Shown here: positions 35,341 through 62,235 of the stretch, piece after piece
Position numbering within the stretch: position 1 is the first letter of the stretch
Layout of the letters: each line of letters opens with the position of its first letter
Source: Pseudomonadota bacterium
GTDB taxonomy: Bacteria > Pseudomonadota > Gammaproteobacteria > Pseudomonadales > JADFDG01
NCBI GenBank assembly: GCA_049324495.1
Contig: JBMOOP010000128.1
Location: forward strand, 10,797 to 74,796
Length of the DNA: 64,000 nucleotides
Reading direction: 5' to 3'
The notes under the pieces: generated by a model
Databases searched by the model: none
Told to the model about the DNA's origin: nothing
Seen by the model: the letters and a program-made list of their open reading frames with translations, nothing else
Position numbers and translations under genes: made by a program

Positions 35341-35381
35341 CGGGCTGGATTCCGTGACTGCGTTCGAACGAGGGTGCGGGT

Positions 35382-39147: not shown

Positions 39148-40652
39148 GGCAGAAAAACTCCCGATGCATCACGGAGGCGTATTGCCAACGCCGTCCAGTC
39201 ATTGTCCGGCCCGTTGCGCCACAGGCGCAATGAGGGATACCAAGGCGTGCGCTCCACGTCATAACCCCAATACCAAAATATCGGCCGTGCATGTGGTAAC
39301 AGAACCTGGCAGGGCACTCCGCTCGCACCCGCGAGATGAACGGTGCTGTTGCTCACCGATACCAGGCCGTCGAGCGCACCCAGTTGCGCGAGTAAACCAT
39401 CGAGATCCTGGTACGCGTCGATGCTGTCATCGGTGACGGGTATCGGCAGGCCGGCACGGGCGAGCTCTGTGAGGTCATCGGACCTTTCACCATACTGCAC
39501 GTTGATGAATACCGTATTTTGTCGTGCCAGCAGTGGTGCCAGCGCGAGGACAGGGATCGATTTGCCTGGCCCATCGCTGAAGACCCGGTTACTGTGCCAG
39601 CTCAGGCCGACGATCTGGCGGCCGGGCCAGCGCAACCGGTAATCCTGGCGTATGCGGGCGACGCGTTCGGCGTCCGGTAACAACCAGGGTGCTTGAGGCG
39701 GCATGCGATCCTGGCACCGCAGGAAGCAGGCCAGATCCAACGACTTGATCCGCCGGAAGACAATGCCGCTGGCTGCGATACGGTCAAAATGGCCTTCCCA
39801 GCGCGGCAGAAAATCAATCTCTGGAAATGAGCGGCGAAACGCCGGAATCAGGCGCGGTTCGCATTCGACCAGGGTGCGCTGGCCCATGACGATGAGATCG
39901 CGGAACATGCACGAAGCGAGAATTTCTTCGCCGAGTCCCTGCTCCCCGGCGACCAGTAATGTGCCATCGAATTGCTTGCCGTCCCAATGGTGCGCTGGCA
40001 GTTTGCGGAAATCGGGGTGGTCATGGTCGTACCGGTGGCGTATCGCACGTTGAAAAGCGAAACCGCGTCCGAATGCGCCGCGTTTCAACAGATGTACGCC
40101 ACACAGCGACAACACGTCGGGGTTGTCGCTGTGGCGGACAATGGCGCTCTCGACGAGGGTATCGAGCTCTTCGCCGCGGCCGAGATTGAACAGGCTGTTG
40201 AGAACGATCTCCATGGACTTCGCATCCGGTGCGACTGACTCGAGACGGCGGCCGCAGGCCAGGGCGTCCTGCCAGTTTTTCAAGGCGCACGACACCAGAC
40301 CGAGAGCGAGAAGCACACCGCTATCGTCCGGTTGCCGCCTGAGATGGGCGTGAAAAAAAGGAACCGCTTCTGCGAAGCGCGCCTGCTTGAACAGTGCATA
40401 ACCCAGCCGCGCCTCGACGCCTGCGTCGGGACGCAACCCTATGATTTGGCGATAGAGCTTCTCGGTGGCCTGCCAATCATGCACCTGCTCGGCAAGGCGT
40501 GCGTATTCGGCAAGGATGGCGACATGATCCGGCAGCAATAAAAGTGCCTGCCGGTAGGATTCCGCTGCCAGTGCCAGTTCACCGCGTTCGTGCTGTTGCT
40601 GCGCTTGTTGGAAACGCCGCAATCCCCTCGCCACGCTCTGGGGGTTATTCAT
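39144..40652 (-). CDS. TPR + GT9-like glycosyltransferase, paralogue C
   Basis: 502 aa. Shared blocks: WDGKQFDGTLLVAGEQGLGEE, VGLSWHS, VQYGE, DLDGLLAQLGALDGLVSVSNSTVHLAGASGVP, WYWGYDVERTPWYPS. Confidence 0.7.
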   Translation of the reverse strand: MNNPQSVARGLRRFQQAQQQHERGELALAAESYRQALLLLPDHVAILAEYARLAEQVHDWQATEKLYRQIIGLRPDAGVEARLGYALFKQARFAEAVPFFHAHLRRQPDDSGVLLALGLVSCALKNWQDALACGRRLESVAPDAKSMEIVLNSLFNLGRGEELDTLVESAIVRHSDNPDVLSLCGVHLLKRGAFGRGFAFQRAIRHRYDHDHPDFRKLPAHHWDGKQFDGTLLVAGEQGLGEEILASCMFRDLIVMGQRTLVECEPRLIPAFRRSFPEIDFLPRWEGHFDRIAASGIVFRRIKSLDLACFLRCQDRMPPQAPWLLPDAERVARIRQDYRLRWPGRQIVGLSWHSNRVFSDGPGKSIPVLALAPLLARQNTVFINVQYGERSDDLTELARAGLPIPVTDDSIDAYQDLDGLLAQLGALDGLVSVSNSTVHLAGASGVPCQVLLPHARPIFWYWGYDVERTPWYPSLRLWRNGPDNDWTALAIRLRDASGVFLP

Positions 40653-42178
40653 GGGCGCAGGGTGACGAAATCGGCAAGGCGCGCGGCAGCGGTGTTCATC
40701 AGGACGCGCCAGTCGTCGTCGCAGGTGTTGCGCAGCAATTCCAGCGACGGATACCAGGGCGTACTGGTTCCCTGGTATCCCCAGTACCAGAGCACGGGCC
40801 GTATTTTTGGCAGTAGCACCAAACAGGTTATGCCCAGTGCGCCAGCGATATGAACCGTCGTGTTGCTGGTAGAAACGATGAGATCGAGCGCTGCAATCTG
40901 GGCGAACAGGCCATCGAGATCGTTGGTGGCATCGATCCGCGCATCGACGAAGATATCGCCCATGCCTGCCGCCCGTAGGCGGTTGATATCGTCTGCCACA
41001 TCGCCATACTGCACGTTGATGAACGCGGTGTTTGCAGTGCCCAGCAGAGGTTCGAAATTCTCAAGCCGGACATTTTTCATCGCGCCGCCTTCCATCACGC
41101 GCGTACTTTTCCAGCTCAGACCGATCAGCCGTCTGCCTGGCCAGCATTGCCGGTAATCGGCCCGTAGCGTGGCCGTGCGTTCGGCATCCGGCAGCAGCCA
41201 GGCGTGCCGATCCGGAAATTTTTCTTTGCCGTTGCGAAAAAAACCGACGAGATCGAGGCCGTTGATCCTGCGAAAGGAGCCGCCCTGGTTGAATGCCTCG
41301 ACCAGCTTCTTTTGGTGGCGTGGCACAAAGCGCAGACTCGGGAATGAGCGTGCGTAAACCGGAATCAGCCGCGTGTCGCATTCGACGATCGCAGCCTGAC
41401 CGAGGGCAACGAGGTCGGCAAATACCGACGAGACCATGATCTCGTCACCGAGCCCCTGCTCGGCGGTAACCAGCAGCGTACCGTCGAACGGTTTGCCATT
41501 CCATGGCTCACCGGGTGTGCCGGCATCCGGCGGTGTTTTGAGATTATGGCGCCAACGAAAATCGGCAAAATATGCAAAACCGTTTTCATAGTCGCCGGCT
41601 TTGAGCTTGTGCAGCGCATACATGGAACGAATTTCCGGACTTTCGGGGAAACGCCGCAGCGCATCGTTGATCAGCGCCTCAAGTTCGTCGGCGCGCGCCA
41701 GGTGAAAAAGCGCATTCAATACGGCATCGAGTACTTTTGCTTCGGGCTTTAATGCGTAGGCACGCCGGGCACAGGCGAGGCCGTCCTCCCAGCGTCCGCT
41801 GGCGCAATAACAGTTGCCGAGCGCATGGATGACATCGGCATCGGCAGGATTGCGCGCGATGTGTTTTTCCAGCCAGTCAATCGCTTCGCTGAAACGTTCC
41901 AGCCGAAACAGTGCGTGGCCGACATGGCCCTCGAAATTGGAATTCGGGCGCAGCGCGCCGATCCTGCGGAAAATTTTTTCCGCAGCCTGCCAGTCGGCAA
42001 CGTCTTCCGCAAGCCTGCCGTACTCGGCGAGCACGGCAGGATGATCCGGCATCAGCCCAAGAGCCTGCTGGTAGAGCGCCGCTGCTTTCGCGTGACTGCT
42101 GGCAGCGTGCTGTTGCCGGGCAGCTTCGAAAAGTTGCAGGCCTTTTATGATTGCCTGCGAATTATTGTTGTTCTGCAT
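40649..42178 (-). CDS. TPR + GT9-like glycosyltransferase, paralogue D
   Basis: 509 aa. Shared blocks: WNGKPFDGTLLVTAEQGLGDE, IGLSWKS, VQYGD, DLDGLFAQIAALDLIVSTSNTTVHIAGALGIT, WYWGYQGTSTPWYPS. It starts 27 nt after the aroG stop. Confidence 0.7.
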   Translation of the reverse strand: MQNNNNSQAIIKGLQLFEAARQQHAASSHAKAAALYQQALGLMPDHPAVLAEYGRLAEDVADWQAAEKIFRRIGALRPNSNFEGHVGHALFRLERFSEAIDWLEKHIARNPADADVIHALGNCYCASGRWEDGLACARRAYALKPEAKVLDAVLNALFHLARADELEALINDALRRFPESPEIRSMYALHKLKAGDYENGFAYFADFRWRHNLKTPPDAGTPGEPWNGKPFDGTLLVTAEQGLGDEIMVSSVFADLVALGQAAIVECDTRLIPVYARSFPSLRFVPRHQKKLVEAFNQGGSFRRINGLDLVGFFRNGKEKFPDRHAWLLPDAERTATLRADYRQCWPGRRLIGLSWKSTRVMEGGAMKNVRLENFEPLLGTANTAFINVQYGDVADDINRLRAAGMGDIFVDARIDATNDLDGLFAQIAALDLIVSTSNTTVHIAGALGITCLVLLPKIRPVLWYWGYQGTSTPWYPSLELLRNTCDDDWRVLMNTAAARLADFVTLRP

Positions 42179-49527: not shown

Positions 49528-50802
49528 TCATTCAAGGAAGTGGTCTTCAATTGCGTGCATAAGGGGAGCCAGTTTATCGAGGCATTCCTGATATTCGGTC
49601 GCCGGATCGGAGTCTGCAACGATGCCGGCGCCGGCCCAGCCGTGCAGCACGCCGTTGCAGGTAACGAAGGTTCGGATGGCAATGTTGGAGCCGAACTGGC
49701 CATCGGCAGTAGCCCAGAAAATCGTCCCGCAGTAGATCGCGCGCGGGTGTGGCTCCAGTTCGTTGATGATTTCCATGGCGCGACGCTTCGGTGCGCCGGT
49801 GATCGAGCCACCGGGGAAGCAGGCTGCCAGTAGCTGCTGCATACCAACACCGGCCGGCAGGGTGCCGGTAACGGTGCTGACCAGATGGTGAACATTGTGG
49901 AATGATTCAACCTGAAAGAGCTCCGGCGTGCGGATAGAACCCGGCGCACAGACTTTGCCAAGGTCATTGCGCAGCAGGTCGACAATCATCAGGTTTTCGG
50001 CGCGATCTTTCGGGTGTGTTACCAAATCGGCCGCCAGTGCCGCGTCCGCGGCGGGGTCGGCCCCTCGCGCGCGCGTCCCCTTGATCGGGCGGGTGGTGAC
50101 GCACCTGCCATCGACTTCCAGGAACGACTCCGGCGACAGGCACAGTACCTGCCAGTCGCCGAAATCCAGCCATGCCGCGTAGGGCGGCGTAAACCGTGCC
50201 CGCAGGAGATCGAACGCCACACGCGGATCGCCTTCATAGCCGGCAGTGAAACGCTGGGCGAGGTTGACCTGATAGGCGTCGCCCGCAACGAGGTAATCCT
50301 GCACTCGCCGAACGGCCGCCATGTAACCGTCGCGCGTCCAGTCGGGTATGAAACGCCTGGTCAGACGAAACGGATCCGAGTGCCCGGCGATGTTGGCCTC
50401 GTCGTCGGTCGGGCTGCCCGGCACGCTGCGGCGGAAATGATCGAAAAACGCCATCCTGGCCGGAAGCCTGACCTGCATCGCCCCCCCGTCGTCCGGATAG
50501 GGCAGCAGCCCCACCAGCAACCCGGCCGACCCGGACGCCACCAGTTCATCCACGGCGCCTGCCAACTGTCCGATCAGGCCGTCGGCGTTCCGGGCCTGCC
50601 ATTGCCGGGCCGGGCCCGAGGCGATCAGGGACATCGCCTGCCCGCTGCCGGGCAGGCGCGTGTCGATCCGGCAGCGGGGGTGGCGATCTGGCGGGGCGGG
50701 CGGTTGGTGCATGGGCTGACCGTTGGGCGGCCCGACGGGTGAAGGACCCCGGGGTTTCGTGAGGTGCTGTCGAGCCGTTATAGTATCAGGGCTTGTGGCC
50801 AT
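49528..50802 (-). CDS. pabB: Aminodeoxychorismate synthase component I (chorismate-binding enzyme)
   Basis: C-terminal chorismate-binding blocks (FPGGSITGAPKRRAMEIINELE, RAIYCGTI, NIAIRT, GAGIVADSDP). The start is uncertain: ATG at 50802, 50712 or 50634. Confidence 0.85.
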   Translation of the reverse strand: MATSPDTITARQHLTKPRGPSPVGPPNGQPMHQPPAPPDRHPRCRIDTRLPGSGQAMSLIASGPARQWQARNADGLIGQLAGAVDELVASGSAGLLVGLLPYPDDGGAMQVRLPARMAFFDHFRRSVPGSPTDDEANIAGHSDPFRLTRRFIPDWTRDGYMAAVRRVQDYLVAGDAYQVNLAQRFTAGYEGDPRVAFDLLRARFTPPYAAWLDFGDWQVLCLSPESFLEVDGRCVTTRPIKGTRARGADPAADAALAADLVTHPKDRAENLMIVDLLRNDLGKVCAPGSIRTPELFQVESFHNVHHLVSTVTGTLPAGVGMQQLLAACFPGGSITGAPKRRAMEIINELEPHPRAIYCGTIFWATADGQFGSNIAIRTFVTCNGVLHGWAGAGIVADSDPATEYQECLDKLAPLMHAIEDHFLE

Positions 50803-50890
50803 GGGTTTCGGGTGGGTGCGGTGTTTTCCGCCTCCCCGCAGGGACGCATCCGGGTTTCCGCCGGGAGCCTATAACGAGAACAACAATCGG

Positions 50891-53614
50891 ATGCACATGC
50901 TTACCGGACGTTTCCGTATTCATCGCTTGCTCCCTCTGCTCGGGGTCCCGGTGCTGTTTGCGCTTGCCTGTACCGAACTGCGTGCAGCAACGATTTTCGT
51001 GACCTCTGCCACCGACAGCTTTTCCACTGCGGATGGTTGCAGCATTCGCGAAGCCCTGATCAACGCCAATACCGACAGCAAATCCGGCTCGGTCGAATGC
51101 GCACGCGGCTCCGGCGCCGACCTTATTGTATTGCCGCCGCAAACCATCAACATGCAGGGGTCGGCCGCTGAAGAAGACGATCCGCGGGTGGGCGACCTGG
51201 ATGTCACCAGCGACATCACGTTTATCGGCGGTGGTGCGCAGTTCAGCCTGCTCGAAGCAGATTACGGTGGCCGTATTTTCGACGTCCAGGCCGGCGGCAC
51301 ATTGACGGTGCGCGGTCTGACGCTGCAACGCGGTATGGCTGCGCAGGAAGGCGGCGCGATCCGCGCCAACCTCGGCTCTACGCTCAACATCAACGACGTT
51401 GTGATTGGATCGGCGATCGTCTCTGCCAGTGCCGTTGGCGGCAGGGGCGGCGCGATCTACATCGGCCCTGGCGTTGCCGCCAACCTGTCGCGCATGCAGA
51501 TTGCCTACAACACCGCGCTGGGTTTGAACGGCGAGGGTGGTGGCATCTACTGTGACGGTTGCCAACTCGCGGTTACTGCCACGACATTCAACGACAACGA
51601 GGCCAGCGCGAGTGGCGGGGCGCTCTATGCGGCACCGGGAAGTTCCGTCGCGCTCTCGTTTGTCACCTTCGGCTACAACGGCGCGGCGGTGGGTGCGGGC
51701 ATGCATCTGCTGGGCGATGCAACACTCAGAGGCGTGCTGGCTGCCGACAACGGCAGCGGCCTGAGCGGTGACGACCTGCTCTGCACCGAGGGTACATTCT
51801 CGGCGACCTATTCGTTCGTTGAGTTTCCCGGCGCCGACTGCGTGCTCGGCACGTCCAATAAAACGCGCAGTGATGTCGCACCTGCGGTTGAGCCGGCCCT
51901 TCTTCAGGAAGCGCTCCTCCAGCGCTTCGACGGCCAGCCAAGCGGCGTGCTGCAGTGGCGTTATGGCGGTTTCTTTGCCGTGCCGGCAGCCCAATGTGCC
52001 GGGTATTCCGACCAGCATGGCCGCCGCGGCGCCGACATCGACGACTGCGACATCGGCGCCTTTTCGCGCCCCGTGCTTGGCGTCAATCCGATGGTCTCGC
52101 AGTCGAGCACCAACGGTGATCCCAGCCTCTTTGGTTTCGGACTGTTCCGCGTGCCGACGGTCGACACCCTCGTGCACCTGAACCCGATCGGCGGTATTGC
52201 CGAGCCTTGCAACGTATCGGTGCCGGACATCAGCATCCCGGCCAACTCCGTCAGCGCCCAGTTGCTGATCGATCCCGATACCCTGTTCAGTGCACCGGCA
52301 ATCGGGCGGCCGTTTCGCGTTTGCGAGTTCGAGCTGGTGGTGACCAGCGGCCCCTCGACGCTCGTGGGCGCACGCAGCGGTGTCCTGCGCATCAAACTGA
52401 ACGACACCTCGCTCGCCGCCGCCGCAGGCGTGTCCTCACCGCCGCCGGGCACTTACCTTGAATTTGGCAGCGTCCCGGTCGGCAGCGGCGGTACCGCCAA
52501 CCTCGTGTTTTTGCCTGCGGTTGCCGGCTGGGACATCACCGGCATCAGTTTCGGGGGTGCCGATCCGTCACGCTTCTCCTCGCCGGCGGCCGGCTTTCCG
52601 ATTCCGGTCCGAACCCGCGATGAGGGCGGCACCAGCCTACCCTTCCAGTGTGCAGGCGGCGTCCTGGGTGCCTACGATGCCTTGATTCAGGTGAACACCA
52701 ATAACCCGACGTTCCCGGTACTCGTCTACGCTGTTCGGTGTCGCGTGGTCCACCTGCTGTCATTGATTGCCAGTGGCAATCTCGTGTCGGAAGCGGGCGG
52801 TGGCGGCAGCGTCGAGTTCACCGTTGCCCTCGATTCGGCGAGCGTCCTGCCGGGCCCTCTCAGCGTCGATCTTGCCGAAGTGGCAGGCAGCGCCACGTCG
52901 CTCAGCGGCGATTACTCCGCTTTTGGCCAAACGATCACCTTCAACCCCGGCGAGCAGCAGCACAGCGTCAGTGTCAGCATCTTCGACGACACCCTGATCG
53001 AGGATACCGAGACATTCGGCGCGCGCCTGGTGCTTGCCCCGCAGGACGACGTTCAGCTTGTCGGTGCATCCGAAGCCACCGTCGTCATCGCCAACGATGA
53101 TTATCCGGTGCAGGCCATGACGCTGGCACTCGATGGCATTCCCGAGCGCACGGCAGCCGGTGTGCGCATCGCGGCGACTGCGGTTGTGACCAACACCGGT
53201 ACGGACCCCCTTCACGACCTGGGCGTCACCATCACGGTCGATGCGCCGGTACGGATCGTCAGTTTTGCCATTGCCTCTGCCGCCTGCGGCCTGAGCGGGA
53301 ATCAGCGTTCCGCCCAGTGCACCCTCGATGGCGATGTGCCGTCGGGCGAGTCCCGGACCTTTGCGGGAACGATTGAAATGGCTGAGATGAAAGACGCGCC
53401 CATGCTGGATCTGGACGGCGTCGTCGCGGTATCGGCCACCGCCACTGCGGCGACGATCCCGCTTGCCGTGACCGACGAAGCGAGCTACACGATCATTGGC
53501 CAGGGCATCAACCTCGGTTCTGTGACCAGCTTCTCATTACTGCCTTTGCTGCTCCTGGGGCTGCGGGGAATCGGGCGTTCCGCTGGTCGGATGACCCGTC
53601 GAATCGGTTGCTAG
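50891..53614 (+). CDS. Large secreted beta-helix surface protein: CSLREA motif N-terminus, Pmp-type GGA[IL]/FxxN repeats, Calx-beta domain, C-terminal hydrophobic-basic anchor-like tail
   Basis: ATG at 50891 gives the signal peptide MHMLTGRFRIHRLLPLLGVPVLFALACTELRAA. Other features are DGCSIREALINAN (CSLREA-type motif), GGAIRAN/GGAIYIG/GGGIYCD/GGALYAA with FNDN/FGYN, a Calx-beta-like GDYSAFGQTITFNPGEQQHSVSVSIFDDTLIEDTETF...VVIANDD, and the C-terminus GSVTSFSLLPLLLLGLRGIGRSAGRMTRRIGC. Confidence 0.75.
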   Translation: MHMLTGRFRIHRLLPLLGVPVLFALACTELRAATIFVTSATDSFSTADGCSIREALINANTDSKSGSVECARGSGADLIVLPPQTINMQGSAAEEDDPRVGDLDVTSDITFIGGGAQFSLLEADYGGRIFDVQAGGTLTVRGLTLQRGMAAQEGGAIRANLGSTLNINDVVIGSAIVSASAVGGRGGAIYIGPGVAANLSRMQIAYNTALGLNGEGGGIYCDGCQLAVTATTFNDNEASASGGALYAAPGSSVALSFVTFGYNGAAVGAGMHLLGDATLRGVLAADNGSGLSGDDLLCTEGTFSATYSFVEFPGADCVLGTSNKTRSDVAPAVEPALLQEALLQRFDGQPSGVLQWRYGGFFAVPAAQCAGYSDQHGRRGADIDDCDIGAFSRPVLGVNPMVSQSSTNGDPSLFGFGLFRVPTVDTLVHLNPIGGIAEPCNVSVPDISIPANSVSAQLLIDPDTLFSAPAIGRPFRVCEFELVVTSGPSTLVGARSGVLRIKLNDTSLAAAAGVSSPPPGTYLEFGSVPVGSGGTANLVFLPAVAGWDITGISFGGADPSRFSSPAAGFPIPVRTRDEGGTSLPFQCAGGVLGAYDALIQVNTNNPTFPVLVYAVRCRVVHLLSLIASGNLVSEAGGGGSVEFTVALDSASVLPGPLSVDLAEVAGSATSLSGDYSAFGQTITFNPGEQQHSVSVSIFDDTLIEDTETFGARLVLAPQDDVQLVGASEATVVIANDDYPVQAMTLALDGIPERTAAGVRIAATAVVTNTGTDPLHDLGVTITVDAPVRIVSFAIASAACGLSGNQRSAQCTLDGDVPSGESRTFAGTIEMAEMKDAPMLDLDGVVAVSATATAATIPLAVTDEASYTIIGQGINLGSVTSFSLLPLLLLGLRGIGRSAGRMTRRIGC

Positions 53615-53724: not shown

Positions 53725-54579
53725 ATGACCTTCAAAAAACTTACCCTAGTCACCGCGATCGCGGCGGCACCCTTCACGGCGTTCAGTGCCTTTGCGGCCG
53801 AGTCGCTCGATGACGCCGTGCTGAGTGGCGTTACCGGCCAGGATGGTATCGCCATCAACCTCGGTCTCAACGTCACCACCAACGCGATCGTTCACGACAC
53901 CGACGGTATCGACAATGTCTCGACGACGTACTCGTTCGACGGCGCGATCATCGTCACGGGCCTCAACATCAACACCCAGGGTAACGATATCCGGGTCGAG
54001 GTTGACGCCGGTGACAGCAGCACCGCTGCGGGCACGGCGCCGGTTCTGAACATCAATGTCGCTATCCCGACCGGCACCACGATCCAGACCGGCACGCTGC
54101 GGGTGGGTAACTCCAACCGTGACGATGCCAGCGGCTGGGGCTATGAGGCCGGCACCGTGTCGGGTGTGATCATGTCCAACGCCACGATCACTCTCGGCGC
54201 GACAACCGCCAACATCCAGTTGGGCAACGAAGCCCAGGGGAACATGATCCAGATCGATACCGTCATCACCGGCGGCGTCTCGATTGCGAACAGCACCCTG
54301 AACGACGCAGGCGGTGCGCTGACCGGCGGCACCATCGGTTCGTCCAACCTCCAGATACTCGACAACGGCGGTACGGACCTGACCGTGGATGTCGGCGTGG
54401 ACGTGACCGCAACCGACGGCTTGCTGATCACCCTGAATCAGGTGGGCGCTGCGGCCACGGGCTTTGACATGCGTATCGAGCGTCAGTACCTGGGCACCAC
54501 GACCCTGGGCTACATCGGGGATGTCGAGCTGACGGGCGTCAACCTGAACGGTTCGACGATCGGTATTTCGGGTAAATAA
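53725..54579 (+). CDS. filA: Putative fibre/pilus major subunit, FilA-like (DUF6160-type), paralogue 1
   Basis: Strong SD (GGAGAAAG). The Sec signal MTFKKLTLVTAIAAAPFTAFSAFA is followed by the conserved ESLDDAVLSGVTGQDGI motif. The mature part is Gly/Thr/Asn/Ile/Val-rich with alternating hydrophobic residues and no Cys, ending in ...GSTIGISGK. The symbol is given by analogy to the Acinetobacter fil locus from memory. Confidence 0.6.
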   Translation: MTFKKLTLVTAIAAAPFTAFSAFAAESLDDAVLSGVTGQDGIAINLGLNVTTNAIVHDTDGIDNVSTTYSFDGAIIVTGLNINTQGNDIRVEVDAGDSSTAAGTAPVLNINVAIPTGTTIQTGTLRVGNSNRDDASGWGYEAGTVSGVIMSNATITLGATTANIQLGNEAQGNMIQIDTVITGGVSIANSTLNDAGGALTGGTIGSSNLQILDNGGTDLTVDVGVDVTATDGLLITLNQVGAAATGFDMRIERQYLGTTTLGYIGDVELTGVNLNGSTIGISGK

Positions 54580-54586
54580 GGGCCCT

Positions 54587-54623
54587 GGGGGGCGGCGGGC
54601 GGGTCCTTCCGTCCGCCGCCCCT
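54587..54623 (+). terminator. GC-rich hairpin after filA paralogue 1 (attenuator or terminator)
   Basis: GGGGGGCGGCGGGCGGG-TCCTT-CCGTCCGCCGCCCC: a roughly 14-bp stem with one mismatch, starting 8 nt after the stop. There is no clear T-tract. Confidence 0.5.
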
Positions 54624-54782
54624 GTCATTCGTCGGCGGTTTGTCATTGTTCTGTACGTGAGTTAGGGGTTTCGTGTTAACTTCTGGTCGGGCAATGTCCT
54701 CGGGGCAGGGCCTCAATGAACAAAGAATGTGCATTTCAAAACAAAAAACGACAAGACCCCGCAAGGGGATAAGGAGAAGAAT

Positions 54783-55622
54783 ATGACCTTCAAGAAACTT
54801 GCGCTCGCCTCAGCCATCGCCCTGGTTCCGGTTTCCGGCTTCTCGCTGGAAGCGCTCGACGATTCCAGCCTCGGTGACGTCACCGGCCAGGACGGTATCG
54901 AGATCGACATCTCCACCGCGTCGCCGATTACGGCGGATTTCTATATTCACGACACAACCGGCTTGGGCAGCACGGCCGCCCCGACGGGCACCCATACCTT
55001 CGACGGCGCCATCGTCATCGATAACTTCTCGTTCAACGGCACGGTCAATATCGACATCGATGCTGGCGACAATGCCAACGCAGCACCATCGGCTCCGGTG
55101 TTGCAGATCAATGTCAGCGTCCCGACAGCGACGATCATCACCGGCGACCTCAGGGTGGCCAACTCGCAGCGTGACGACGCAACGTCTAACTGGGGCGTCA
55201 ACACCATCTCTGGTGTGCTGCTGAACACCATGACCATCGCCATGTCCGGCCTGACGCTCAACATACAACTCGGCAACGAGCCGCAGGGCAACATGATCCT
55301 GGTGAACTCGACGATCACCGGCGGCCTCTCGATCAACAGCTTTGCCCTCAACGACGCAAACTCAGGCGGTGCCGCAATCGGCGCGTCCAACATCTTGGTT
55401 CGGGATACGGCTGGCGGTGCCGACCTGAGTCTCAACGTCGGCGTGGATGCCAGCACGGCCGGGCTTGTCATTGACGTGAACAACATCGGTACGTTGGCGG
55501 GTGGTATGGATCTCCGCATTACCGATCTGTACCTTGGCACCACGGGTGCGGGCATAGTCGGCGATGTGACCGTCGTCGGCCTCAACCTTGCCGGTTCCAC
55601 GGTCACCATCTCCGGCAAATAA
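54783..55622 (+). CDS. filA: Putative fibre/pilus subunit, FilA-like (DUF6160-type), paralogue 2
   Basis: The ATG at 54783 follows AAGGAGA. MTFKKLALASAIALVPVSGFS is followed by LEALDDSSLGDVTGQDGI. It is collinear with paralogue 1 (roughly half of positions identical by eye) and has the same C-terminus ...GSTVTISGK. Confidence 0.6.
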   Translation: MTFKKLALASAIALVPVSGFSLEALDDSSLGDVTGQDGIEIDISTASPITADFYIHDTTGLGSTAAPTGTHTFDGAIVIDNFSFNGTVNIDIDAGDNANAAPSAPVLQINVSVPTATIITGDLRVANSQRDDATSNWGVNTISGVLLNTMTIAMSGLTLNIQLGNEPQGNMILVNSTITGGLSINSFALNDANSGGAAIGASNILVRDTAGGADLSLNVGVDASTAGLVIDVNNIGTLAGGMDLRITDLYLGTTGAGIVGDVTVVGLNLAGSTVTISGK

Positions 55623-55640
55623 TCCAACGCTTCACCGCTC

Positions 55641-55691
55641 CGCAGGAAGCCCGGCTCCGGCCGGGCTTCCTCGTTCCTGCGGGATATTTTT
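55641..55691 (+). terminator. Hairpin/likely terminator after filA paralogue 2
   Basis: A perfect 11-bp stem GGAAGCCCGGC-TCCG-GCCGGGCTTCC (55645-55670) is flanked by CGCAG/CTGCG and followed by a T-rich stretch (GATATTTTTCTCT). Confidence 0.6.
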
Positions 55692-55822
55692 CTCTGCATT
55701 ACAAAAGTCTACACGGGCCGGCTTGCGGCGCCGGGCACCGCATCGCTAACCTAGCGCCTCATAACAAGAATTCGGCTGTTTTGCCCGCCCGGGCAGACAG
55801 CCCCCAGGCTCTGGGGTAGTCG

Positions 55823-56632
55823 ATGTTGGCCGTTCTGGCAGGCGCCATTCTGATGCTCGTCGCTTTGAATAATGTCGCGGTGGTCGAAGACCAACCGGCG
55901 GGTATTGTTCAATACGAGCATCCGCAGCGCTTCGGCGCGATACGGGAGCGCGGGGTCACAGTCAAGCCGGACAGTGTCGTGAAATATCACGGTATCGTTC
56001 GTCAGGCCTATGACTACAGCTGCGGTTCTGCGGCGCTCACTACCTTGCTCAACGGCTACCTCGGCCGCCAGTTTCACGAACGACAGATCATGGAAGGCCT
56101 GCTGCGTTTCGGCGAAACGGACAAAATTGTCGAGCGGCGCGGCTTTTCGTTGCTCGACATGAAACGCCTGGTCACCGCGCTGGGCCATCCCAGCGGCGGT
56201 TTTCGCGCCACAACCCAAGACCTGGTCGTGCTCGACCACCCGGCAATCGCGCCGATCGGTTACGCTGGCTTCAAGCATTTTGTCGTGATCAAGGGCTTTC
56301 GCGACGGCCGCGTGTTCGTGGCCGATCCGGCACTGGGCAACATTTCGTTCTCGATCACCCGTTTCGAGGAAGTGTGGCTCGACAATGTGTTGTTCATCGT
56401 GTTCCCGAACGGCTTTGAACCGCAGAAGACGCTCGATATTGCGGACACCGATTTGCGCTATATCGATGAACAAACGATTCGGCGTCTGTCGTTCGCCCAG
56501 CCGGAAGTGTTCCTGCCGGCTCGCGAGATCGAGGCGGATCGCGCTGCTTCGCTCGTTCCGGTGTACATCGAGAATTCGAAAGGGAAACTTGAAATCATCA
56601 ACGTGCCGCTGCGGACGTATTTCGCGCGCTGA
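55823..56632 (+). CDS. filB: Stand-alone membrane-anchored C39-family cysteine peptidase (FilB-like)
   Basis: N-terminal TM/signal anchor MLAVLAGAILMLVALNNV. The C39 catalytic Cys context is QAYDYSCGSAALTTLLN. The His/Asp region is GFKHFVVIKGFRDGRVFVADPALG. No ABC transporter domain is fused. Confidence 0.7.
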   Translation: MLAVLAGAILMLVALNNVAVVEDQPAGIVQYEHPQRFGAIRERGVTVKPDSVVKYHGIVRQAYDYSCGSAALTTLLNGYLGRQFHERQIMEGLLRFGETDKIVERRGFSLLDMKRLVTALGHPSGGFRATTQDLVVLDHPAIAPIGYAGFKHFVVIKGFRDGRVFVADPALGNISFSITRFEEVWLDNVLFIVFPNGFEPQKTLDIADTDLRYIDEQTIRRLSFAQPEVFLPAREIEADRAASLVPVYIENSKGKLEIINVPLRTYFAR

Positions 56633-56654
56633 ACAACAAGAAGGACGAGTAGCG

Positions 56655-57782
56655 ATGCTGACATTTGCCCGTACCTCCTGGATTGCCGCTTTGGTGCTGC
56701 TCGCCATGGCGCCTCTCACTCATGCCGAGGATGTACCGGTATCGCCTGAGCCTGCCACTTCTGCACCCGAAGCCACTGCCGCTCCGGCAACGGCCGAACC
56801 TGCAGCGCCTGTGGCGACGGCTGCGCCGGCCGCTACGCCGCCGCCGGCCGATGCCGACAAAGCCCGTGAAGCCTTGACGGCAAAAGAGGGGGATGTCACC
56901 GCAGAGAAAAACCTGGAGGAAGTTTTCCAGGCGGCAGAGAAGCAGTACTCCTTGCTCAAGTCGGGCCAGATGGATATAGGGTATTCGTTCAATTACGGTT
57001 ATTTCCGCAACGATCGCATCGATATTGCCTTCAACGACGGCGGCAGCATCAGCCGGTTCCTGATCGAGCAGGACGCCCAGCATTCCTTTTCCAACTCTTT
57101 TTCGTTCGATTACGGCGTCTGGAACAACCTGACGATCAACGCGCAGTTGCCACTGCTTTTCAAGTATGACTCGGCCAAGGATATTTCCGGTGCAGCGTTG
57201 GGCGATGTGTCCTTGGGCCTGCGCTGGCAACCGTTCGCACTCAAGCGTGGCGCGCCGGTCAGCACCCTGTTTGCCACCTTCTCGACGGCCACCGGCGACA
57301 GCCCCTACAAGATCAATCCGAACACGGATCTGTCGTCCGGCAAGGGCTACTACGCCACGTCGTTCGGTGCCTCGGCCAGTAAGGTCATCGATCCGGCGGT
57401 CGTCTTCGGCAGCCTGAGTTACACCATGGGTTTCGATGCGACCGATCTGGATCAGGCACGCGGTGAGCGTATTCTGACCGAGTTTCACCCGGGTGATTCG
57501 GTCAGCTTCTCGATGGGCCTGGCCTACTCGCTGTCCTACGATTTATCGATCAGTGTGTCCTATCAGCAGAGCTATGCGTTCCAGAGCGAATACCTGTTCA
57601 GCAACGGCGATTTCGTCGGTTCCGAGGATTCCACCTCGGCTTCGCTCAGTTCGTCGGTGGGCGTGCGCATGTCGCCGAAGCGGATCGTCAATATAGGGCT
57701 TGGTTTTGGCCTGACCGAGGAAGCATCCGATGTCACGATCGGCATTTCCCTGCCGATCGATATCGCTGGCCTCAAGAAGTGA
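56655..57782 (+). CDS. filC: Outer-membrane beta-barrel 'transporter' (MetA-pathway/phenol-degradation-like family; FilC-like) with a Pro/Ala-rich N-terminal spacer
   Basis: The ATG at 56655 follows AAGGACGAG. It has the signal peptide MLTFARTSWIAALVLLAMAPLTHA, then a spacer of about 50 aa (PEPATSAPEATAAPATAEPAAPVATAAPAATPPPA), then alternating-pattern beta strands (GYSFNYGYF..., SFSFDYGVW..., LSISVSYQQSYAF). The family call is from memory of similar loci. Confidence 0.55.
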   Translation: MLTFARTSWIAALVLLAMAPLTHAEDVPVSPEPATSAPEATAAPATAEPAAPVATAAPAATPPPADADKAREALTAKEGDVTAEKNLEEVFQAAEKQYSLLKSGQMDIGYSFNYGYFRNDRIDIAFNDGGSISRFLIEQDAQHSFSNSFSFDYGVWNNLTINAQLPLLFKYDSAKDISGAALGDVSLGLRWQPFALKRGAPVSTLFATFSTATGDSPYKINPNTDLSSGKGYYATSFGASASKVIDPAVVFGSLSYTMGFDATDLDQARGERILTEFHPGDSVSFSMGLAYSLSYDLSISVSYQQSYAFQSEYLFSNGDFVGSEDSTSASLSSSVGVRMSPKRIVNIGLGFGLTEEASDVTIGISLPIDIAGLKK

Positions 57783-57827
57783 TCGTGCGTGCACGAATCA
57801 GCGGGGATGCATAGGACAGGGCCAAGC

Positions 57828-59489
57828 ATGACCAAGCTGCACGTGTTTTTCCGGTGGGCTACAGTGCTGGCGCTGTTTGCGTCACAGGCAGCTCCCGCCC
57901 AGGTGGCGACCAACATCGCGGTCGACGTTCGCGCGATGGCGCTGGGCAACGCAGTAACTGCCGATCCGCCGGGAATCAGTGCCATCCATTTCAATCCCGC
58001 CGGCCTTGCCAAGCTGGAAGGTCGGCGTATCGATCTGCAGTTCATTGCGGCTGATTTTGCACTCAATTCGAAATTCACCGCACCGCCGGGCTACGAGGTG
58101 TTTGGTTTTTCGGACGATCCGGTCGTCTGCGCCGATCCGGCCAACGACGGTGCCGATCAATGCCGCGAGTTCAAAACCGGTAACAGCAGTGTCGCCGGCG
58201 TTTCACTTTATCTGCCGGTGATCGATCAGGTCGTGGACTTGCCGCCGGGGCCCATCATGTTCGGTCCCCTGCCGGCCTTTTCCATCAGGCCGGCGGGTTC
58301 GAAAGTCACCTTTGCCAATGGTATCTATGCACCGCTGGTTGCCGGTTTTCACCGCAACGAAGACGATCCGGGCAACTTTCTGGGTAAACGCGTGGCGCTC
58401 GAACGCATCACTTATTTGTCACCGTCGTTGGGTTGGCAGGTCAATGATCATTGGGCCGTCGGTATGTCGGTCGGGCTCTCCTACCAGGCGGTTTCCTTGG
58501 AAACCGATTTCCGCTCGCCGAACGAACTGCTTGGTTTTGCGCGGGTGCTCGACGAAGATATTTGTGCGCCGTTTCGCGGTGAGTCGAACGTCGTGCTCGA
58601 CATTTTTCTGTTCGGTGCCTGTGGAGCGGAGGAGGGCCTCGATCCGTTTGAAAGCCTCGCCACCATGGACCTCAGCCTGGAGCAGCGCATGTCGCCGAGC
58701 TACAACCTCGGCGTGCTGTGGGAACCGAACGAAAAATTCTCCTGGGGCCTGGTCTGGCAATCCGAGGCCAACATGGACCTCAAGGGCAAGTACAAAATCA
58801 CCTACGAAAAACCGACACGCGACGTGTTGAATTCGGTCGGCAGTTCGCCAACCGGCGCCATTGCGCTCGCCGTGCTTGGCTTGCCCAGTTATGTCCCCCA
58901 GGAGGAAACGGGCCTGCTGTCCATGGGGCTCATCTATCCTGCGCACCTGCAAACCGGCATCAAATACGGTTTCCTGCCGCGCTGGCGGCTGAATATGGAT
59001 GTTGGTTGGGCGGATTACGGCAAGTGGGCGGCTTTCAACGTCAAATTTGACCGCAATATTGCTGCGCTGAGCCTGGCCCGGCTGCTCGCGCCCGGTGTCA
59101 CCCAGAGTTCGTTGTCGTTACCGCTGGGTTTTCAGAGCACATGGAGTATGGGGATAGGTGTCGAGTGGGATTTCACCGATCGCCTCACGTTGCGGATGGG
59201 TTATGAACCGCGTTCTTCCGCGATCCCGGAAAATAAGCGCAGCCCGCTCGTGCCAATCAACAAGGCGGTGCTGTACGGTTTGGGGCTGGGTTATAAATGG
59301 GACAAGGATTCGCAGGTAGACATTACCTTCGCCTACATGCACAGCAAGGACAGCATACCGGCGGACTCCAGTTGCGCAGCAAACTGCACGGGCCTGGACA
59401 ACATCATCTATAACCCGTACGCGGGCCTGGATATTCAGACGTCGGCCGAGATTCTTTATTTTGGCTTTGCCTATCGCACCACTTGGTAA
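57828..59489 (+). CDS. filD: Outer-membrane protein of the OmpP1/FadL/TodX family (FilD-like)
   Basis: ATG at 57828. It has the signal peptide MTKLHVFFRWATVLALFASQAAPAQ and a FadL-like N-terminal hatch (RAMALGNAVTADPPGISAIHFNPAGLA). The C-terminal beta-signal ...ILYFGFAYRTTW ends in an aromatic residue. Confidence 0.7.
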   Translation: MTKLHVFFRWATVLALFASQAAPAQVATNIAVDVRAMALGNAVTADPPGISAIHFNPAGLAKLEGRRIDLQFIAADFALNSKFTAPPGYEVFGFSDDPVVCADPANDGADQCREFKTGNSSVAGVSLYLPVIDQVVDLPPGPIMFGPLPAFSIRPAGSKVTFANGIYAPLVAGFHRNEDDPGNFLGKRVALERITYLSPSLGWQVNDHWAVGMSVGLSYQAVSLETDFRSPNELLGFARVLDEDICAPFRGESNVVLDIFLFGACGAEEGLDPFESLATMDLSLEQRMSPSYNLGVLWEPNEKFSWGLVWQSEANMDLKGKYKITYEKPTRDVLNSVGSSPTGAIALAVLGLPSYVPQEETGLLSMGLIYPAHLQTGIKYGFLPRWRLNMDVGWADYGKWAAFNVKFDRNIAALSLARLLAPGVTQSSLSLPLGFQSTWSMGIGVEWDFTDRLTLRMGYEPRSSAIPENKRSPLVPINKAVLYGLGLGYKWDKDSQVDITFAYMHSKDSIPADSSCAANCTGLDNIIYNPYAGLDIQTSAEILYFGFAYRTTW

Positions 59490-59490
59490 C

Positions 59491-60318
59491 GTGATTCTGC
59501 GTACGCTCCTCATTGGTTTGCTCGCTGCGCTGGCTGCCTGTCAGGGCGCTGCTCCCCGCAGCACAGCCGGCCAGCCGGGCGAAGTTGTGTTCGTGGACGC
59601 CGTCGGCAATCGCATGCATGTTGATGTCGCACATGAACCTGCCAGATCGCCGTCTGCCAGCGAATTCGGCGGCGAGCAATTCGTTGATGTCGATACCCTC
59701 GATCAGCAGGCAGATCAGCGCAGTCGCGATCGTTTCTACCCGATTCCGCAGCCCGGTGGCGAGCCCGGCATTGTCAGCGCCCGCGCCCTTGGCGTCGAGC
59801 CTGCCGGCAGCGCGATGCAGGCAGAACCTGCAAAGCAGATACCTGCCGAACTCAGGACCTGTTCGCAGGGGCCGGTCATCGAACACCTCCTGGTGCGCGA
59901 AACCCCGGCGCTGCATGTGGATCTGGTGTTCCCGGTCTATGGCGACTCGCTGGCGCCGTTACGACGTTATGCCGGCCATGCATTGCCGCTACCGGCTGGT
60001 GCTGTGGCAGTACGGTTGTGGGTAATCGTGCAGGGCACAACGGCGCCGGATCTGGTCGCGCTGCTTGTCGATCGCGATGGTCGCGTCACTTCGATCGTTA
60101 ACAACATTGCGACTGAATCGATACCGGAAAATCTGTTCCGCTACGGTAGAGTCGGCAGTGTGATTCCGTTACCGCGAGAGGCCGCCTCCGGGGAGCGTCT
60201 GGTGGTTATGGAGGGGCATTGGGCCCGCAAGATACTGCCGGTTGAGTGCCAGCCAGCCACATCGCTCGGCGCTGCAGTGGCTGGCCGCACCACACTTGAA
60301 TTTCTGATGGGCGAATGA
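59491..60318 (+). CDS. filE: Lipoprotein of unknown function (FilE-like by position)
   Basis: The GTG at 59491 gives (V)ILRTLLIGLLAALAAC (lipobox LAAC). I recognise no other motif. The start is uncertain (the ORF opens at 59461, overlapping filD). Confidence 0.5.
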   Translation: MILRTLLIGLLAALAACQGAAPRSTAGQPGEVVFVDAVGNRMHVDVAHEPARSPSASEFGGEQFVDVDTLDQQADQRSRDRFYPIPQPGGEPGIVSARALGVEPAGSAMQAEPAKQIPAELRTCSQGPVIEHLLVRETPALHVDLVFPVYGDSLAPLRRYAGHALPLPAGAVAVRLWVIVQGTTAPDLVALLVDRDGRVTSIVNNIATESIPENLFRYGRVGSVIPLPREAASGERLVVMEGHWARKILPVECQPATSLGAAVAGRTTLEFLMGE

Positions 60319-60326
60319 GGCAAGCG

Positions 60327-62138
60327 ATGAAGTTTCGCGCAGGGTGCAGGGTGCTCATGAGCGCCCTGTTGCTTGGTCTGGCCGGTTGCGACATTGCCCC
60401 TGATGCCAGACTGGGCGATCCGATCAACAGCGGTGCTGGTGGCGCTGATGGCAGTCAGCTTGATCCGAATGCAGACGGAAACATCGCCGTTTTTTTCTAT
60501 CTCGATCGGCCTGTGGTCGGCTTGCGTTTCAGTTGCACCAGTTCGGGAGCCCTGCCAATTATTACCGGGCAGACCGACGGTAACGGGCGTCTTGTTTGCC
60601 CGCGCAGGGCCAGACTCGCTTTTTTCATCGGCGATCCCGCTGAATTGAAACTGGGTGAGGTCGATCTCGGGATATTCGGCCGTGAAGGTGAGGCCGACGC
60701 GCGCAACTACGTCACGGTTACGCCGGCCACGCTCGCCGGAACCCTGGCTGACTCGAACAACGCTGTCGTGACCAATACCTTCAATCTGTTGACGACGCTC
60801 GATGCCGGAACAGGGGGTGGTCGGCAGGCCGTTATCCACATCACCGATGCCGTGCATACCGCCTTTTCGCCCCACGCAAACAGCCTTGCGCTCGATGCCC
60901 CGGTAATTGGTTTTGACTCCGCACTTGAGACAATCGCGCTCGCGATTCATGCAGAAACAGCCAATTCCCTGCGCAACGGCGGTCTTGCTCTGACCGATGT
61001 CCAGGCGCGGGTTCTGGCGGATACGTCCATTCTGCGTGCGCGCTCGGGTATGTACCGTTCGCTGGGCGGCATGAGTGACACCAATGATTTCATCACCAGC
61101 CTTGGTTTCAGCGGCAAGGTGATTTTCTCGGTTGCGCGCAGCGGACGAGTGGCGGGCATTGCCCAGTTCACGCGAATCGACAATGGCGTACAGCCGCCGG
61201 GGTTCGCGCTTGAGATAGGTCCACTGGTCGATGACTCGCGGCTGCTGCCGGACGGACGCCTGGTGCACGGTACCGCCGCAGCTGCAGGCTTGCGCTGGCT
61301 TTCGGCGGCAAACGACGATCTGCTGCTCACCGGCCGCCTGGTGAATGACTGGCTGTTTGGCAATATCGAGAATCTCGATCCGGAACAGAATCACCGCGTG
61401 CCGTCAAATTATGTGTTTTCGTCAACCGATCTGGGCTATTTCCGGGTGAACGGTAATCAGTTTGAAGGCGAGACGTCGGTCTACGCGAGTGCGCTCAACA
61501 CCCCCGGCATCGAGCTCGATGAGTTGCCGGCCGAATTTCTGCCGCGAACCATTGGCCTGAAGTACAGGGGCTATCCGGATGGCGAGAAGGTGACGGATGC
61601 ACAACGGGCCAGCTCCACTTATCTGAACGCTGAAACCGAGCACGAGTTATTTTTCCGTATCCTTGCCGACGGTGACATCGTCAGCGATGTCGACCGCGAC
61701 TGCGAAGACATCTCCCTGGTTGGCAATCAATTGCGGGATGCAAGTAGCACGCAGGAGTTTTACGTGGGCCACGTCGGCGCCATTTTCAAAGACGACGAGG
61801 GGAACCCGTACATCACGATGATCCTGGCGATCTATGAACCGGGTCATCCGCAATACGGGTTCACGCTGGGTGCCCCGGCTTTGGGTCGCAGCACCCTCGA
61901 TTCGGTGGTGTACGACGTAAATCGCGGGGAATTGCGCAGCAAGAACTGCGATCCGAAAGATGATCCCTGCACCGAGCCGGTCGAGTGGTTCGATGACGTT
62001 TTTTACATCAGGGAAGTGCTCAAACCGATCCTCGCACAGGGCATTACGGACGTGGAGGATGCCGATCTGTACTTCCGTGATCCGGGCTATTACGGCCAGA
62101 TCACGCTCAATGCCGACATCTGTACGGTCCCACCCTGA
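60327..62138 (+). CDS. filF: Large lipoprotein of unknown function (FilF-like by position)
   Basis: The ATG at 60327 follows GAGG (MKFRAGCRVLMSALLLGLAGC, lipobox LAGC). An alternative ATG at 60315 forms an ATGA overlap with filE. About 600 aa, with no recognisable enzymatic motif. Confidence 0.5.
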   Translation: MKFRAGCRVLMSALLLGLAGCDIAPDARLGDPINSGAGGADGSQLDPNADGNIAVFFYLDRPVVGLRFSCTSSGALPIITGQTDGNGRLVCPRRARLAFFIGDPAELKLGEVDLGIFGREGEADARNYVTVTPATLAGTLADSNNAVVTNTFNLLTTLDAGTGGGRQAVIHITDAVHTAFSPHANSLALDAPVIGFDSALETIALAIHAETANSLRNGGLALTDVQARVLADTSILRARSGMYRSLGGMSDTNDFITSLGFSGKVIFSVARSGRVAGIAQFTRIDNGVQPPGFALEIGPLVDDSRLLPDGRLVHGTAAAAGLRWLSAANDDLLLTGRLVNDWLFGNIENLDPEQNHRVPSNYVFSSTDLGYFRVNGNQFEGETSVYASALNTPGIELDELPAEFLPRTIGLKYRGYPDGEKVTDAQRASSTYLNAETEHELFFRILADGDIVSDVDRDCEDISLVGNQLRDASSTQEFYVGHVGAIFKDDEGNPYITMILAIYEPGHPQYGFTLGAPALGRSTLDSVVYDVNRGELRSKNCDPKDDPCTEPVEWFDDVFYIREVLKPILAQGITDVEDADLYFRDPGYYGQITLNADICTVPP

Positions 62139-62160: not shown

Positions 62161-62172
62161 ATTGTCGACAAT
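62161..62172. promoter_or_regulatory. Perfect 12-bp palindrome ATTGTCGACAAT, candidate GntR-family operator 1
   Basis: Read directly. It contains the GT-N-AC core typical of GntR/FadR-type operators. An identical copy lies 63 bp downstream. Confidence 0.5.
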
Positions 62173-62223: not shown

Positions 62224-62235
62224 ATTGTCGACAAT
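62224..62235. promoter_or_regulatory. Perfect 12-bp palindrome ATTGTCGACAAT, candidate GntR-family operator 2
   Basis: Identical to the 62161-62172 site. It ends 6 nt before the GTG start of the GntR gene. Confidence 0.5.

Follow-up and report, generated by a model that had tools for sequence, protein, structure and literature searches.

The Fil system of Acinetobacter, encoded by filABCDEF, is termed a putative type III pilus in the literature. In Acinetobacter sp. Tol 5, FilA was found by Edman degradation in cell-surface protein preparations and was seen as a monomer on SDS-PAGE (polyacrylamide gel electrophoresis in the presence of sodium dodecyl sulfate), while curved fibres visible by transmission electron microscopy were deduced, not immunolabelled, to be Fil fimbriae, which cover triacylglycerol-grown cells and are sparse on cells grown on other substrates (PMC3498257). 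FilA has also been detected in Tol 5 cells by liquid chromatography-mass spectrometry. In A. baumannii, FilC and FilF are raised in biofilm and pellicle, and FilF has been chosen in silico as a vaccine antigen without known function or structural template. In Pseudomonas, FapD and FapF form the experimentally characterised export pair of the functional-amyloid system Fap: FapF, a trimeric translocon with 12 strands and a plug as its gate, lets unfolded amyloid subunits through, and periplasmic FapD, together with its catalytic cysteine, is needed for Fap secretion (PMC5557850). Our literature search found no published work connecting Fil with Fap and no published study of the mechanism by which Fil is assembled, the latter in agreement with a first-pass annotation of the DNA studied here. 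This DNA, hereafter the window, is a 64,000-nucleotide (nt) stretch from an uncultured marine gammaproteobacterium near Alcanivoracaceae, with a guanine-cytosine (GC) content of ~60%. We analysed a fil-like gene cluster located at positions 53725-62138 of the window, and we propose, with moderate confidence, that it encodes a surface-fibre system of the Fil type in which the outer membrane is crossed by a Fap-kind (FapD/FapF) export step.

The cluster consists of seven intact, co-directional open reading frames (ORFs) on the plus strand, here numbered g1 to g7, as the first-pass annotation had described it. Its GC content is uniform (~0.59-0.61), and the genes from g3 to g7 follow one another closely, the gaps being 22, 45, 1 and 8 nt after start refinement. 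The best NCBIfam matches along the cluster are FilA, FilA, FilB, FilC, FilD, none and, weakly, FilF, which is the order of the A. baumannii fil locus to which the cluster had been likened. Profile similarity to the fil and DUF6160 families had been set beforehand as a test of that likeness, and both DUF6160 and the Fil models were matched. The curated NCBIfam cut-offs are tuned to Acinetobacter, and against them the window scores for FilB, FilC, FilD and FilF lie below and that for FilA-1 marginally below. Judged by these profiles, the window carries a locus of the Fil type in which the subunit gene is duplicated, and thereby a member of a named system, not a new kind of system; an Alcanivorax FilA is already called "putative pilus system protein FilA" by NCBI. 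All seven products are predicted to be exported by the Sec route, as a signal peptide or a lipobox is visible on every protein.

The Fap-kind export step is indicated by the third and fourth genes. filB (55823-56632, +) encodes a stand-alone C39 cysteine peptidase of 269 amino acids (aa), as first annotated (Pfam Peptidase_C39, expectation value (E) 6e-16; NCBIfam FilB, E 4e-87, full length). After its own model, the best match of FilB is FapD (NF058616; E 6.6e-30, 104 bits), with the next family at 37 bits. Residues C67, which is the only cysteine of FilB, H152 and D168 fall on the catalytic triad of the PCAT1 C39 domain when the two are aligned, and the protein carries an N-terminal hydrophobic export segment. 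Its sequence identifies FilB as a predicted periplasmic C39 peptidase with an intact Cys-His-Asp triad.

The next gene, filC (56655-57782, +), encodes a 375-aa FapF-like outer-membrane barrel that matches NCBIfam FilC over its full length (E 8e-116). Here, too, the best match after the protein's own model is to Fap: FapF (NF058560) is matched with E 6.4e-18 and 65 bits over model positions 215-417 of 420, and the next family scores 19 bits. Over residues 183-367, FilC can be aligned with 5o65, 5o67 and 5o68, the sequences of FapF crystal structures (E 1.3e-10), and the "PTG" region of FapF aligns to the invariant TGDSPY of FilC. By profile and alignment, FilB is clearly homologous to FapD, and FilC to FapF. 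The first-pass headline, that the locus lacks all known assembly machinery, is therefore wrong, because homologues of the known fibre-secretion pair FapD/FapF are present; the accompanying view that both barrels come from uptake families overlooked the match between FilC and FapF. What did stand is the observation behind that headline, since none of the seven products has a Pfam or NCBIfam match to a chaperone, usher, prepilin peptidase, secretin, ATPase, sortase or CsgG/E/F. For FilC itself, the early description as an outer-membrane barrel was sound, while its assignment to the MetA pathway had to be dropped: Phenol_MetA_deg gave no Pfam match even at E <= 10.

FilC is composed of a signal peptide (residues 1-24), the Pro/Ala-rich spacer that had been recognised at first pass (25-66), a conserved helix (67-105) and the barrel (~106-375). 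We compared the N-termini of 28 orthologues and observed that the spacer is confined to the window's clade, in which its length and sequence vary. Alcanivorax and Pseudomonas FilC have, immediately behind the signal peptide, a conserved helix of ~40 residues (..AREAL..E.DVT.EKNLEEVFQAAEKQYSLL..) abutting the barrel. This conserved N-terminal helix is a natural candidate for the plug.

We next consider the putative cargo. filA-1 (53725-54579, +) encodes the putative major fibre subunit, a protein of 284 aa, and filA-2 (54783-55622, +) a paralogous subunit of 279 aa counted from its ATG, the mechanical ORF beginning at GTG 54729. The two proteins share 49% identity (E 2e-77) and correspond to their early description as paralogous, secreted and Cys-free; both are enriched in T, G, A, I, L, V, N and D. 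Their C-terminal end, also reported at first pass, is common to both and reads G.NL.GST..ISGK (...GSTIGISGK in FilA-1). Pfam DUF6160 is matched by both, as is NCBIfam pilus_FilA (NF050077, cut-off 220) over the full length, with 211.5 bits (E 1.6e-62) for FilA-1 and 223.4 bits for FilA-2. The search for FilA-1 homologues returned 206 proteins, all with DUF6160, and related genomes carry one to three orthologous copies of the filA-2 type. Mature FilA has a mass of ~26 kDa and an isoelectric point (pI) of 4.05, and its grand average of hydropathy (GRAVY; +0.16 and +0.31 for the two subunits) is unusually high for a secreted protein. In each mature FilA the sole lysine is the C-terminal residue (last codons at 54577-54579 and 55620-55622); across the family, the terminus is G-K or G-H almost without exception.

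FilA-1 can be divided into a signal peptide (residues 1-24), a conserved leader (A25-Q39) and an all-beta core starting from D40/G41. The AlphaFold2 (AF2) model of FilA-1 (predicted local distance difference test score (pLDDT) 82; predicted template modelling score (pTM) 0.75) is all-beta, with 17 strands, two of them of 18-23 residues; residues 1-39 are disordered save for a short helix at 30-36, and the fold begins at residue 41. Profile searches of the PDB found no sequence relative of FilA. The first-pass description of the subunits as beta-solenoid-like was not borne out. Segment-versus-segment alignment revealed no internal repeats, and we rejected both a beta-solenoid and amyloid repeats for FilA on this ground; nor did the model match any structure in the PDB, among whose entries beta-helices are numerous.

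The most conserved part of the FilA family is the stretch behind the signal peptide, x-E-x-L-D-D-x-x-L-S-x-V-T-G-Q-D-G. In FilA-1 it contains the leader-like motif AESLDDAVLSGVTGQ (53797-53841, +), which lies between the signal-peptidase site and the folded core; the leader of FilA-2 is L22-Q36. Residues D30, G38, Q39, D40 and G41 are invariant across 45 FilA homologues. When all ORFs of at least 120 aa in the window and the first 27 loci were inspected, the motif was present only in FilA-like proteins (n = 32 ORFs), and in 80 further metagenome loci every motif-bearing ORF was FilA-like, with the motif always just after the signal-peptidase site. Double-glycine leaders are the classic substrates of C39 peptidases, which canonically cut after G-G, G-A or G-S. 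By inspection, and not by a statistical model, L28, L33, V36 and G38 of FilA-1 sit at positions -12, -7, -4 and -2, as in double-glycine leaders; all four positions are conserved among the 45 homologues. We regard the FilA leader, from its sequence, as a candidate recognition and cleavage signal for FilB. As a separate observation, residues 100-105 of FilC (56952-56969), at the helix-barrel junction (..LLKSGQ), resemble the L-S-x-V-T-G-Q end of the FilA leader. For Fap, cleavage of FapF by FapD at the helix-barrel junction has been suggested (PMC5557850). The junction motif is not kept in Pseudomonas-type FilC, and the resemblance may be coincidence.

The metagenome FilA proteins fall into two size classes, of ~280 aa (~271-302 aa) and ~145 aa (~144-154 aa). 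What long and short proteins have in common is just the leader, with the invariant motif L-D-D-x-x-L-x-x-V-T-G-Q-D-G, and the C-terminal end (..IGSLAVNDMNMAGTTVKVWGH against ..IGDVELTGVNLNGSTIGISGK); their middles differ. That only the two termini are conserved suggests that they serve for recognition by the machinery, as joints between subunits, or for both purposes. Short DUF6160 subunits (144-154 aa) occur in loci L027 (8383-9027), L063-L080, L096, L098 and L104.

Downstream of filC, filD (57828-59489, +) encodes a 553-aa barrel of the FadL/TodX family, as first annotated. It matches Pfam Toluene_X (PF03349) with E 3.9e-63 over positions 8-420 of 421, and NCBIfam FilD with E 2.9e-240 over its full length. 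It carries the NPAGL hatch motif at residue 56 and ends in ...YRTTW; the nearest solved sequences are 3dwo, FadL, TodX and TbuX, and filD is the best conserved gene of the cluster. Its N-terminal residues 29-66 also give a weak PorV/PorQ match (E 4.8e-10). FilD could be a true channel for hydrophobic substrates whose function is coupled to that of the fibre, or, by analogy with PorV in type IX secretion, a FadL-fold protein recruited to protein secretion.

The last two genes encode lipoproteins of the sizes given at first pass, and filD, filE and filF are translationally coupled. The start of the gene in filE position (g6, 59491-60318, +) is most likely GTG 59491, one base after the filD stop, giving a 275-aa lipoprotein with lipobox LAAC. 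It has no direct match to a Pfam or NCBIfam family, and no FilE model was matched in NCBIfam. The window clade of g6 is connected by hhalign to the Alcanivorax fifth-position clade (99.1%, E 4e-19), and that clade to a Pseudomonas protein with a Pfam MalM domain (96.8%, E 2.5e-10; MalM E 6e-26). Through this transitive homology, g6 is taken as a divergent MalM-like lipoprotein, and its place in the gene order makes it, as read from sequence, the positional equivalent of filE. The filF-like gene (g7, 60327-62138, +), starting at ATG 60327, encodes a 603-aa lipoprotein with lipobox LAGC, Asp at +2 and six further invariant cysteines. Its direct match to NCBIfam FilF is weak and N-terminal only (E 1.8e-4). 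An exhaustive profile search among 1.84 billion representatives found just 98 relatives, nearly all of 580-700 aa. We class g7 as a distant FilF, given that pilus_FilF is matched by 14/14 members of the g7 family (best E 4e-8) and that intermediates among the 98 relatives match FilF along its whole length (E 3e-60 to 3e-19). A third round of homologue searching from the FilF alignment brought back the same 15 proteins, and PDB profile searches with FilF found nothing; the AF2 model of g7 has a pLDDT of 68.6.

The closest locus belongs to an uncultured bacterium, with 74-99% amino-acid identity per gene (lowest for g2, highest for gntR), followed by gammaproteobacterial metagenome-assembled genomes, Alcanivorax and Alloalcanivorax species and one Pseudomonas. 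Synteny is kept in 27 genomes, where the cluster lies between pabB and gntR-prpB with one to four filA copies. A metagenome scan with the FilC alignment yielded the 80 further loci mentioned above, 64 of which carry FilB-FilC-FilD-FilE colinearly, with median gaps of 38, 18 and 4 nt. One locus has room for a fifth gene and none is detectable there; the flanks of most others are too short to tell. As FilF of the window type was present in only 3/80 metagenome loci, the reproducible core is the subunit plus FilBCDE. The Pseudomonas locus (L027) encodes two MalT/LuxR-type regulators, a short subunit, FilB, FilC, FilD and a MalM-domain protein, and has no FilF.

Our model of a Fil fibre exported by a Fap-kind step is as follows. 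All products would reach the periplasm via Sec. After removal of its signal peptide, FilA would keep a 15-residue acidic amphipathic extension ahead of the folded core, and FilB would recognise this leader and most likely cleave at or near Q39/D40, leaving D40 as the new N-terminus. Unfolded FilA would then pass through FilC, in which the conserved N-terminal helix may act as the plug, as the homology to FapF suggests. Folding and polymerisation outside the cell could drive export without ATP, and the conserved N- and C-terminal ends of FilA may form the subunit joints, with FilA-1 as the major subunit and FilA-2 as a minor or nucleating one. In the least certain step, an outer-membrane accessory complex may be made up of FilD and the two lipoproteins, MalM-like and FilF-like; such a complex might anchor or nucleate the fibre, or couple the fibre to the uptake of hydrophobic substrates.

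Several observations weigh against this model. In this organism, the system is known from its genes alone. Regarding the cargo, FilA has no similarity to FapB, FapC or FapE (only FilA was matched among the NCBIfam models at E <= 10), and segment-versus-segment alignment gives no internal or amyloid-type repeats (z <= 1.7). Consequently, the cargo is a different kind of protein from the Fap subunits and may not travel unfolded. Structure comparison with Foldseek gave no significant match for the FilA-1 model in the PDB or BFVD (best E 0.22 and 0.23; TM-scores <= 0.24 across the FilA and FilF searches) and none for the g7 model in the PDB (best E 1.2e-3). Position -1 of the leader is an invariant Gln, in contrast to the Gly, Ala or Ser of double-glycine leaders. 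In Fap, the suggested substrates of FapD are FapE or FapF, not the major subunit, and the coiled-coil domain of FapF matters for FapC secretion (PMC5557850); this separate N-terminal domain is absent from FilC, as judged from the comparison of orthologue N-termini. In three loci, L071, L094 (after a ppiD-like gene) and L101, FilB-C-D-E occurs without an upstream subunit gene of at least 100 aa, so that the cargo of these modules must be encoded elsewhere or be very different. Finally, neither the top rank in conservation of a FadL-family barrel nor the lack of a neighbouring subunit gene in some FilBCDE modules is accounted for by the model.

In a first alternative, the cluster serves the capture and uptake of hydrophobic substrates: FilD would import alkanes, fatty acids or lipids by FadL-type lateral diffusion, FilA and FilF would be surface proteins that bind or present the substrate, and FilB and FilC would do no more than deliver these helpers to the surface. 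FilD, from the most conserved gene, is a full-length member of the FadL/TodX family with its hatch motif, and the named hosts are Alcanivorax, Alloalcanivorax, one Pseudomonas and, by the names of the NCBIfam models, Acinetobacter, of which Alcanivorax and strain Tol 5 use hydrocarbons or lipids. The deduced Fil fimbriae of Tol 5 cover cells on triacylglycerol and are sparse otherwise (PMC3498257), mature FilA is unusually hydrophobic, and the Pseudomonas module lies behind the two MalT/LuxR-type regulators. FilA and FilF also show structural echoes of lipid-binding folds, but all of these structural hints are below significance. Moreover, the cluster contains no catabolic genes, and it is flanked by housekeeping genes (pabB, prpB and a 3'-phosphoadenosine 5'-phosphosulfate (PAPS) reductase gene), with no alkane or lipid catabolic genes among these flanks; FadL-fold barrels act in protein secretion as well (PorV, type IX), and FilD has its weak PorV/PorQ match. 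We consider uptake an unlikely explanation. The fibre and the uptake readings are not exclusive, and uptake is possible for the FilD part; nothing tested favours uptake over a fibre.

A second alternative keeps the fibre and exchanges the roles of the barrels: FilD, and not FilC, would carry or anchor the subunits as a PorV-like shuttle or platform that binds the C-terminal end of FilA, and FilC would export, for example, a minor or initiator protein. The PorV/PorQ match of FilD is in line with this, as are the translational coupling of FilD, FilE and FilF and the invariant C-terminal end of FilA, which is common to long and short subunits and could be a recognition tag resembling a type IX C-terminal domain. 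However, the PorV match spans only ~40 residues, and the whole protein scores as FadL/TodX. To our knowledge, no FadL-family protein translocates proteins by itself, which counts against a carrier role for FilD. The homologues of FilC in Fap, on the other hand, are demonstrated protein translocons, and we give this alternative little credence. It is likewise improbable that FilA, delivered by a Fap-like system, belongs to a secreted matrix or a surface layer or forms amyloid-like aggregates, with "pilus" a historical misnomer: the export pair has its counterpart in an amyloid system, FilA is acidic, Cys-free and Thr/Asn/Gly-rich, and the fibre of Tol 5 was assigned to FilA by deduction, not by immunolabelling, but FilA has no imperfect repeats as in CsgA or FapC, AF2 gives a confident globular all-beta monomer, and FilA is monomeric on SDS-PAGE in Tol 5, unlike SDS-insoluble amyloid (PMC3498257).

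Returning to the Fil fibre with a Fap-kind export step, a broader and more tentative proposal can be made, which we put forward as a possibility that is at present doubtful. FilB-C-D-E might represent a distinct and widespread outer-membrane fibre-assembly pathway, evolutionarily tied to Fap, in which Sec-exported subunits of two sizes would lose a T-G-Q leader to a C39 peptidase, cross the outer membrane through a FapF-like barrel and polymerise through their termini on a platform of FadL-fold protein and lipoproteins, possibly coupled to hydrophobic-substrate uptake in oil- or lipid-degrading bacteria. If true, Gram-negative pilus biogenesis would gain a new class, and a substrate signal of periplasmic C39 peptidases would be defined for the first time. 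In Acinetobacter baumannii, Fil proteins serve as vaccine candidates and as markers of biofilm or pellicle, and the combination of a Fap-type export pair, a leader paired with a C39 peptidase and a FilBCDE module with two cargo classes makes the assembly route testable by mutation. The kinship of FilB and FilC with FapD and FapF widens the reach of the Fap-type translocon beyond amyloids, and that a FadL-family barrel is strictly tied to the system, in bacteria degrading hydrocarbons and lipids, is a hint that surface fibres may be connected with the handling of hydrophobic substrates.

Regarding expression of the cluster, each filA gene is followed by a strong hairpin. The GC-rich hairpin after filA-1 (54580-54642, +) has a folding free energy of -41.5 kcal/mol (z -3.1; 0/200 shuffles as good) and is likely an attenuator or terminator. 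The hairpin after filA-2 (55640-55698, +; -37 kcal/mol, z -4.8) has a U-run behind it, is terminator-like and partially matches in the terminator scan. Terminator counts of the region were not above those of shuffles, and the two hairpins were judged by folding instead; a sigma-70 scan upstream of filA-1 found no promoter. The hairpins fit high expression of the subunits with read-through into the machinery genes.

Other features of the neighbourhood concern single clades or lie outside the cluster. Directly upstream of filA-1, a large secreted protein is encoded at 50723-53614 (+), with its real start probably near 50891. It carries a Calx-beta domain as well as POMP-like repeats of the GGA[IL] type, has a C-terminal tail, hydrophobic plus basic (..SLLPLLLLGLRGIGRSAGR..), with the appearance of a sorting signal, and gives weak matches to CSLREA_Nterm and rhombotarget A. 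Its gene is syntenic with fil only in the window's clade and is absent from Alcanivorax proper. There, a protein of 624-635 aa with tetratricopeptide repeats (TPR) and a sulfotransferase domain is encoded between filA and filB (L009, 7034-8908; L028, 11193-13100), raising the possibility of subunit or glycan modification in those Alcanivorax species. The window has no orthologue of this protein, only generic TPR similarity: the four tandem TPR-repeat ORFs of ~500-600 aa at 36071-42178 (-), which have PrsT-like matches and lie beside a glycosyltransferase-like gene (33553-35661), are not orthologous to it. Downstream of the cluster, the filF-gntR intergenic region contains two exact copies of the 12-bp palindrome ATTGTCGACAAT (62161-62172 and 62224-62235), 63 bp apart, with 0.21 expected. 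These are probably operators of the downstream GntR-family prp regulator and not part of the fil cluster.

The locus can be compared with four known kinds of system. With the C39 domains of bacteriocin ATP-binding cassette (ABC) exporters such as PCAT1, FilB shares the C39 fold and catalytic triad, and the FilA leader resembles double-glycine leaders in being short, acidic and amphipathic and, by inspection, in its hydrophobic residues at positions -12, -7 and -4 and its Gly at -2. In contrast to these, the FilA leader lies behind a Sec signal peptide and would be periplasmic, its -1 residue is the invariant Gln, and there is no ABC transporter. With FadL and TodX, FilD shares an end-to-end Toluene_X match and the NPAG hatch motif, whereas it is ~110-130 residues longer than the solved chains of FadL, TodX and TbuX (419-451 residues) and is always embedded in the FilB-C-D-E module; its weak N-terminal similarity to PorV/PorQ recalls PorV, the FadL-fold protein used in type IX protein secretion.

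The closest system is the filABCDEF locus of Acinetobacter (type III or Fil pilus; NF050077-NF050081), which has the same gene content and order: one or more DUF6160 subunits, a C39 peptidase, a FapF-like barrel, a FadL-family barrel, a small protein or lipoprotein, which corresponds by position, and a lipoprotein of ~600-640 aa. The window locus differs from it in its duplicated subunit gene, in the clade-specific Pro/Ala spacer of FilC and in a FilF that is related only distantly. Compared with Fap, the Fil cargo is unrelated, having neither repeats nor similarity to FapB, FapC or FapE, the cluster contains no FapA or FapE genes, FilC is without the separate N-terminal coiled-coil domain of FapF, and Fil adds a FadL-family barrel, a MalM-like lipoprotein and the FilF lipoprotein. 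What the two systems have in common is a stand-alone periplasmic C39 peptidase with catalytic Cys and His (FapD and FilB), a homologous outer-membrane barrel with a helix ahead of it (FapF and FilC), and subunit genes placed upstream, with no ATPase present.

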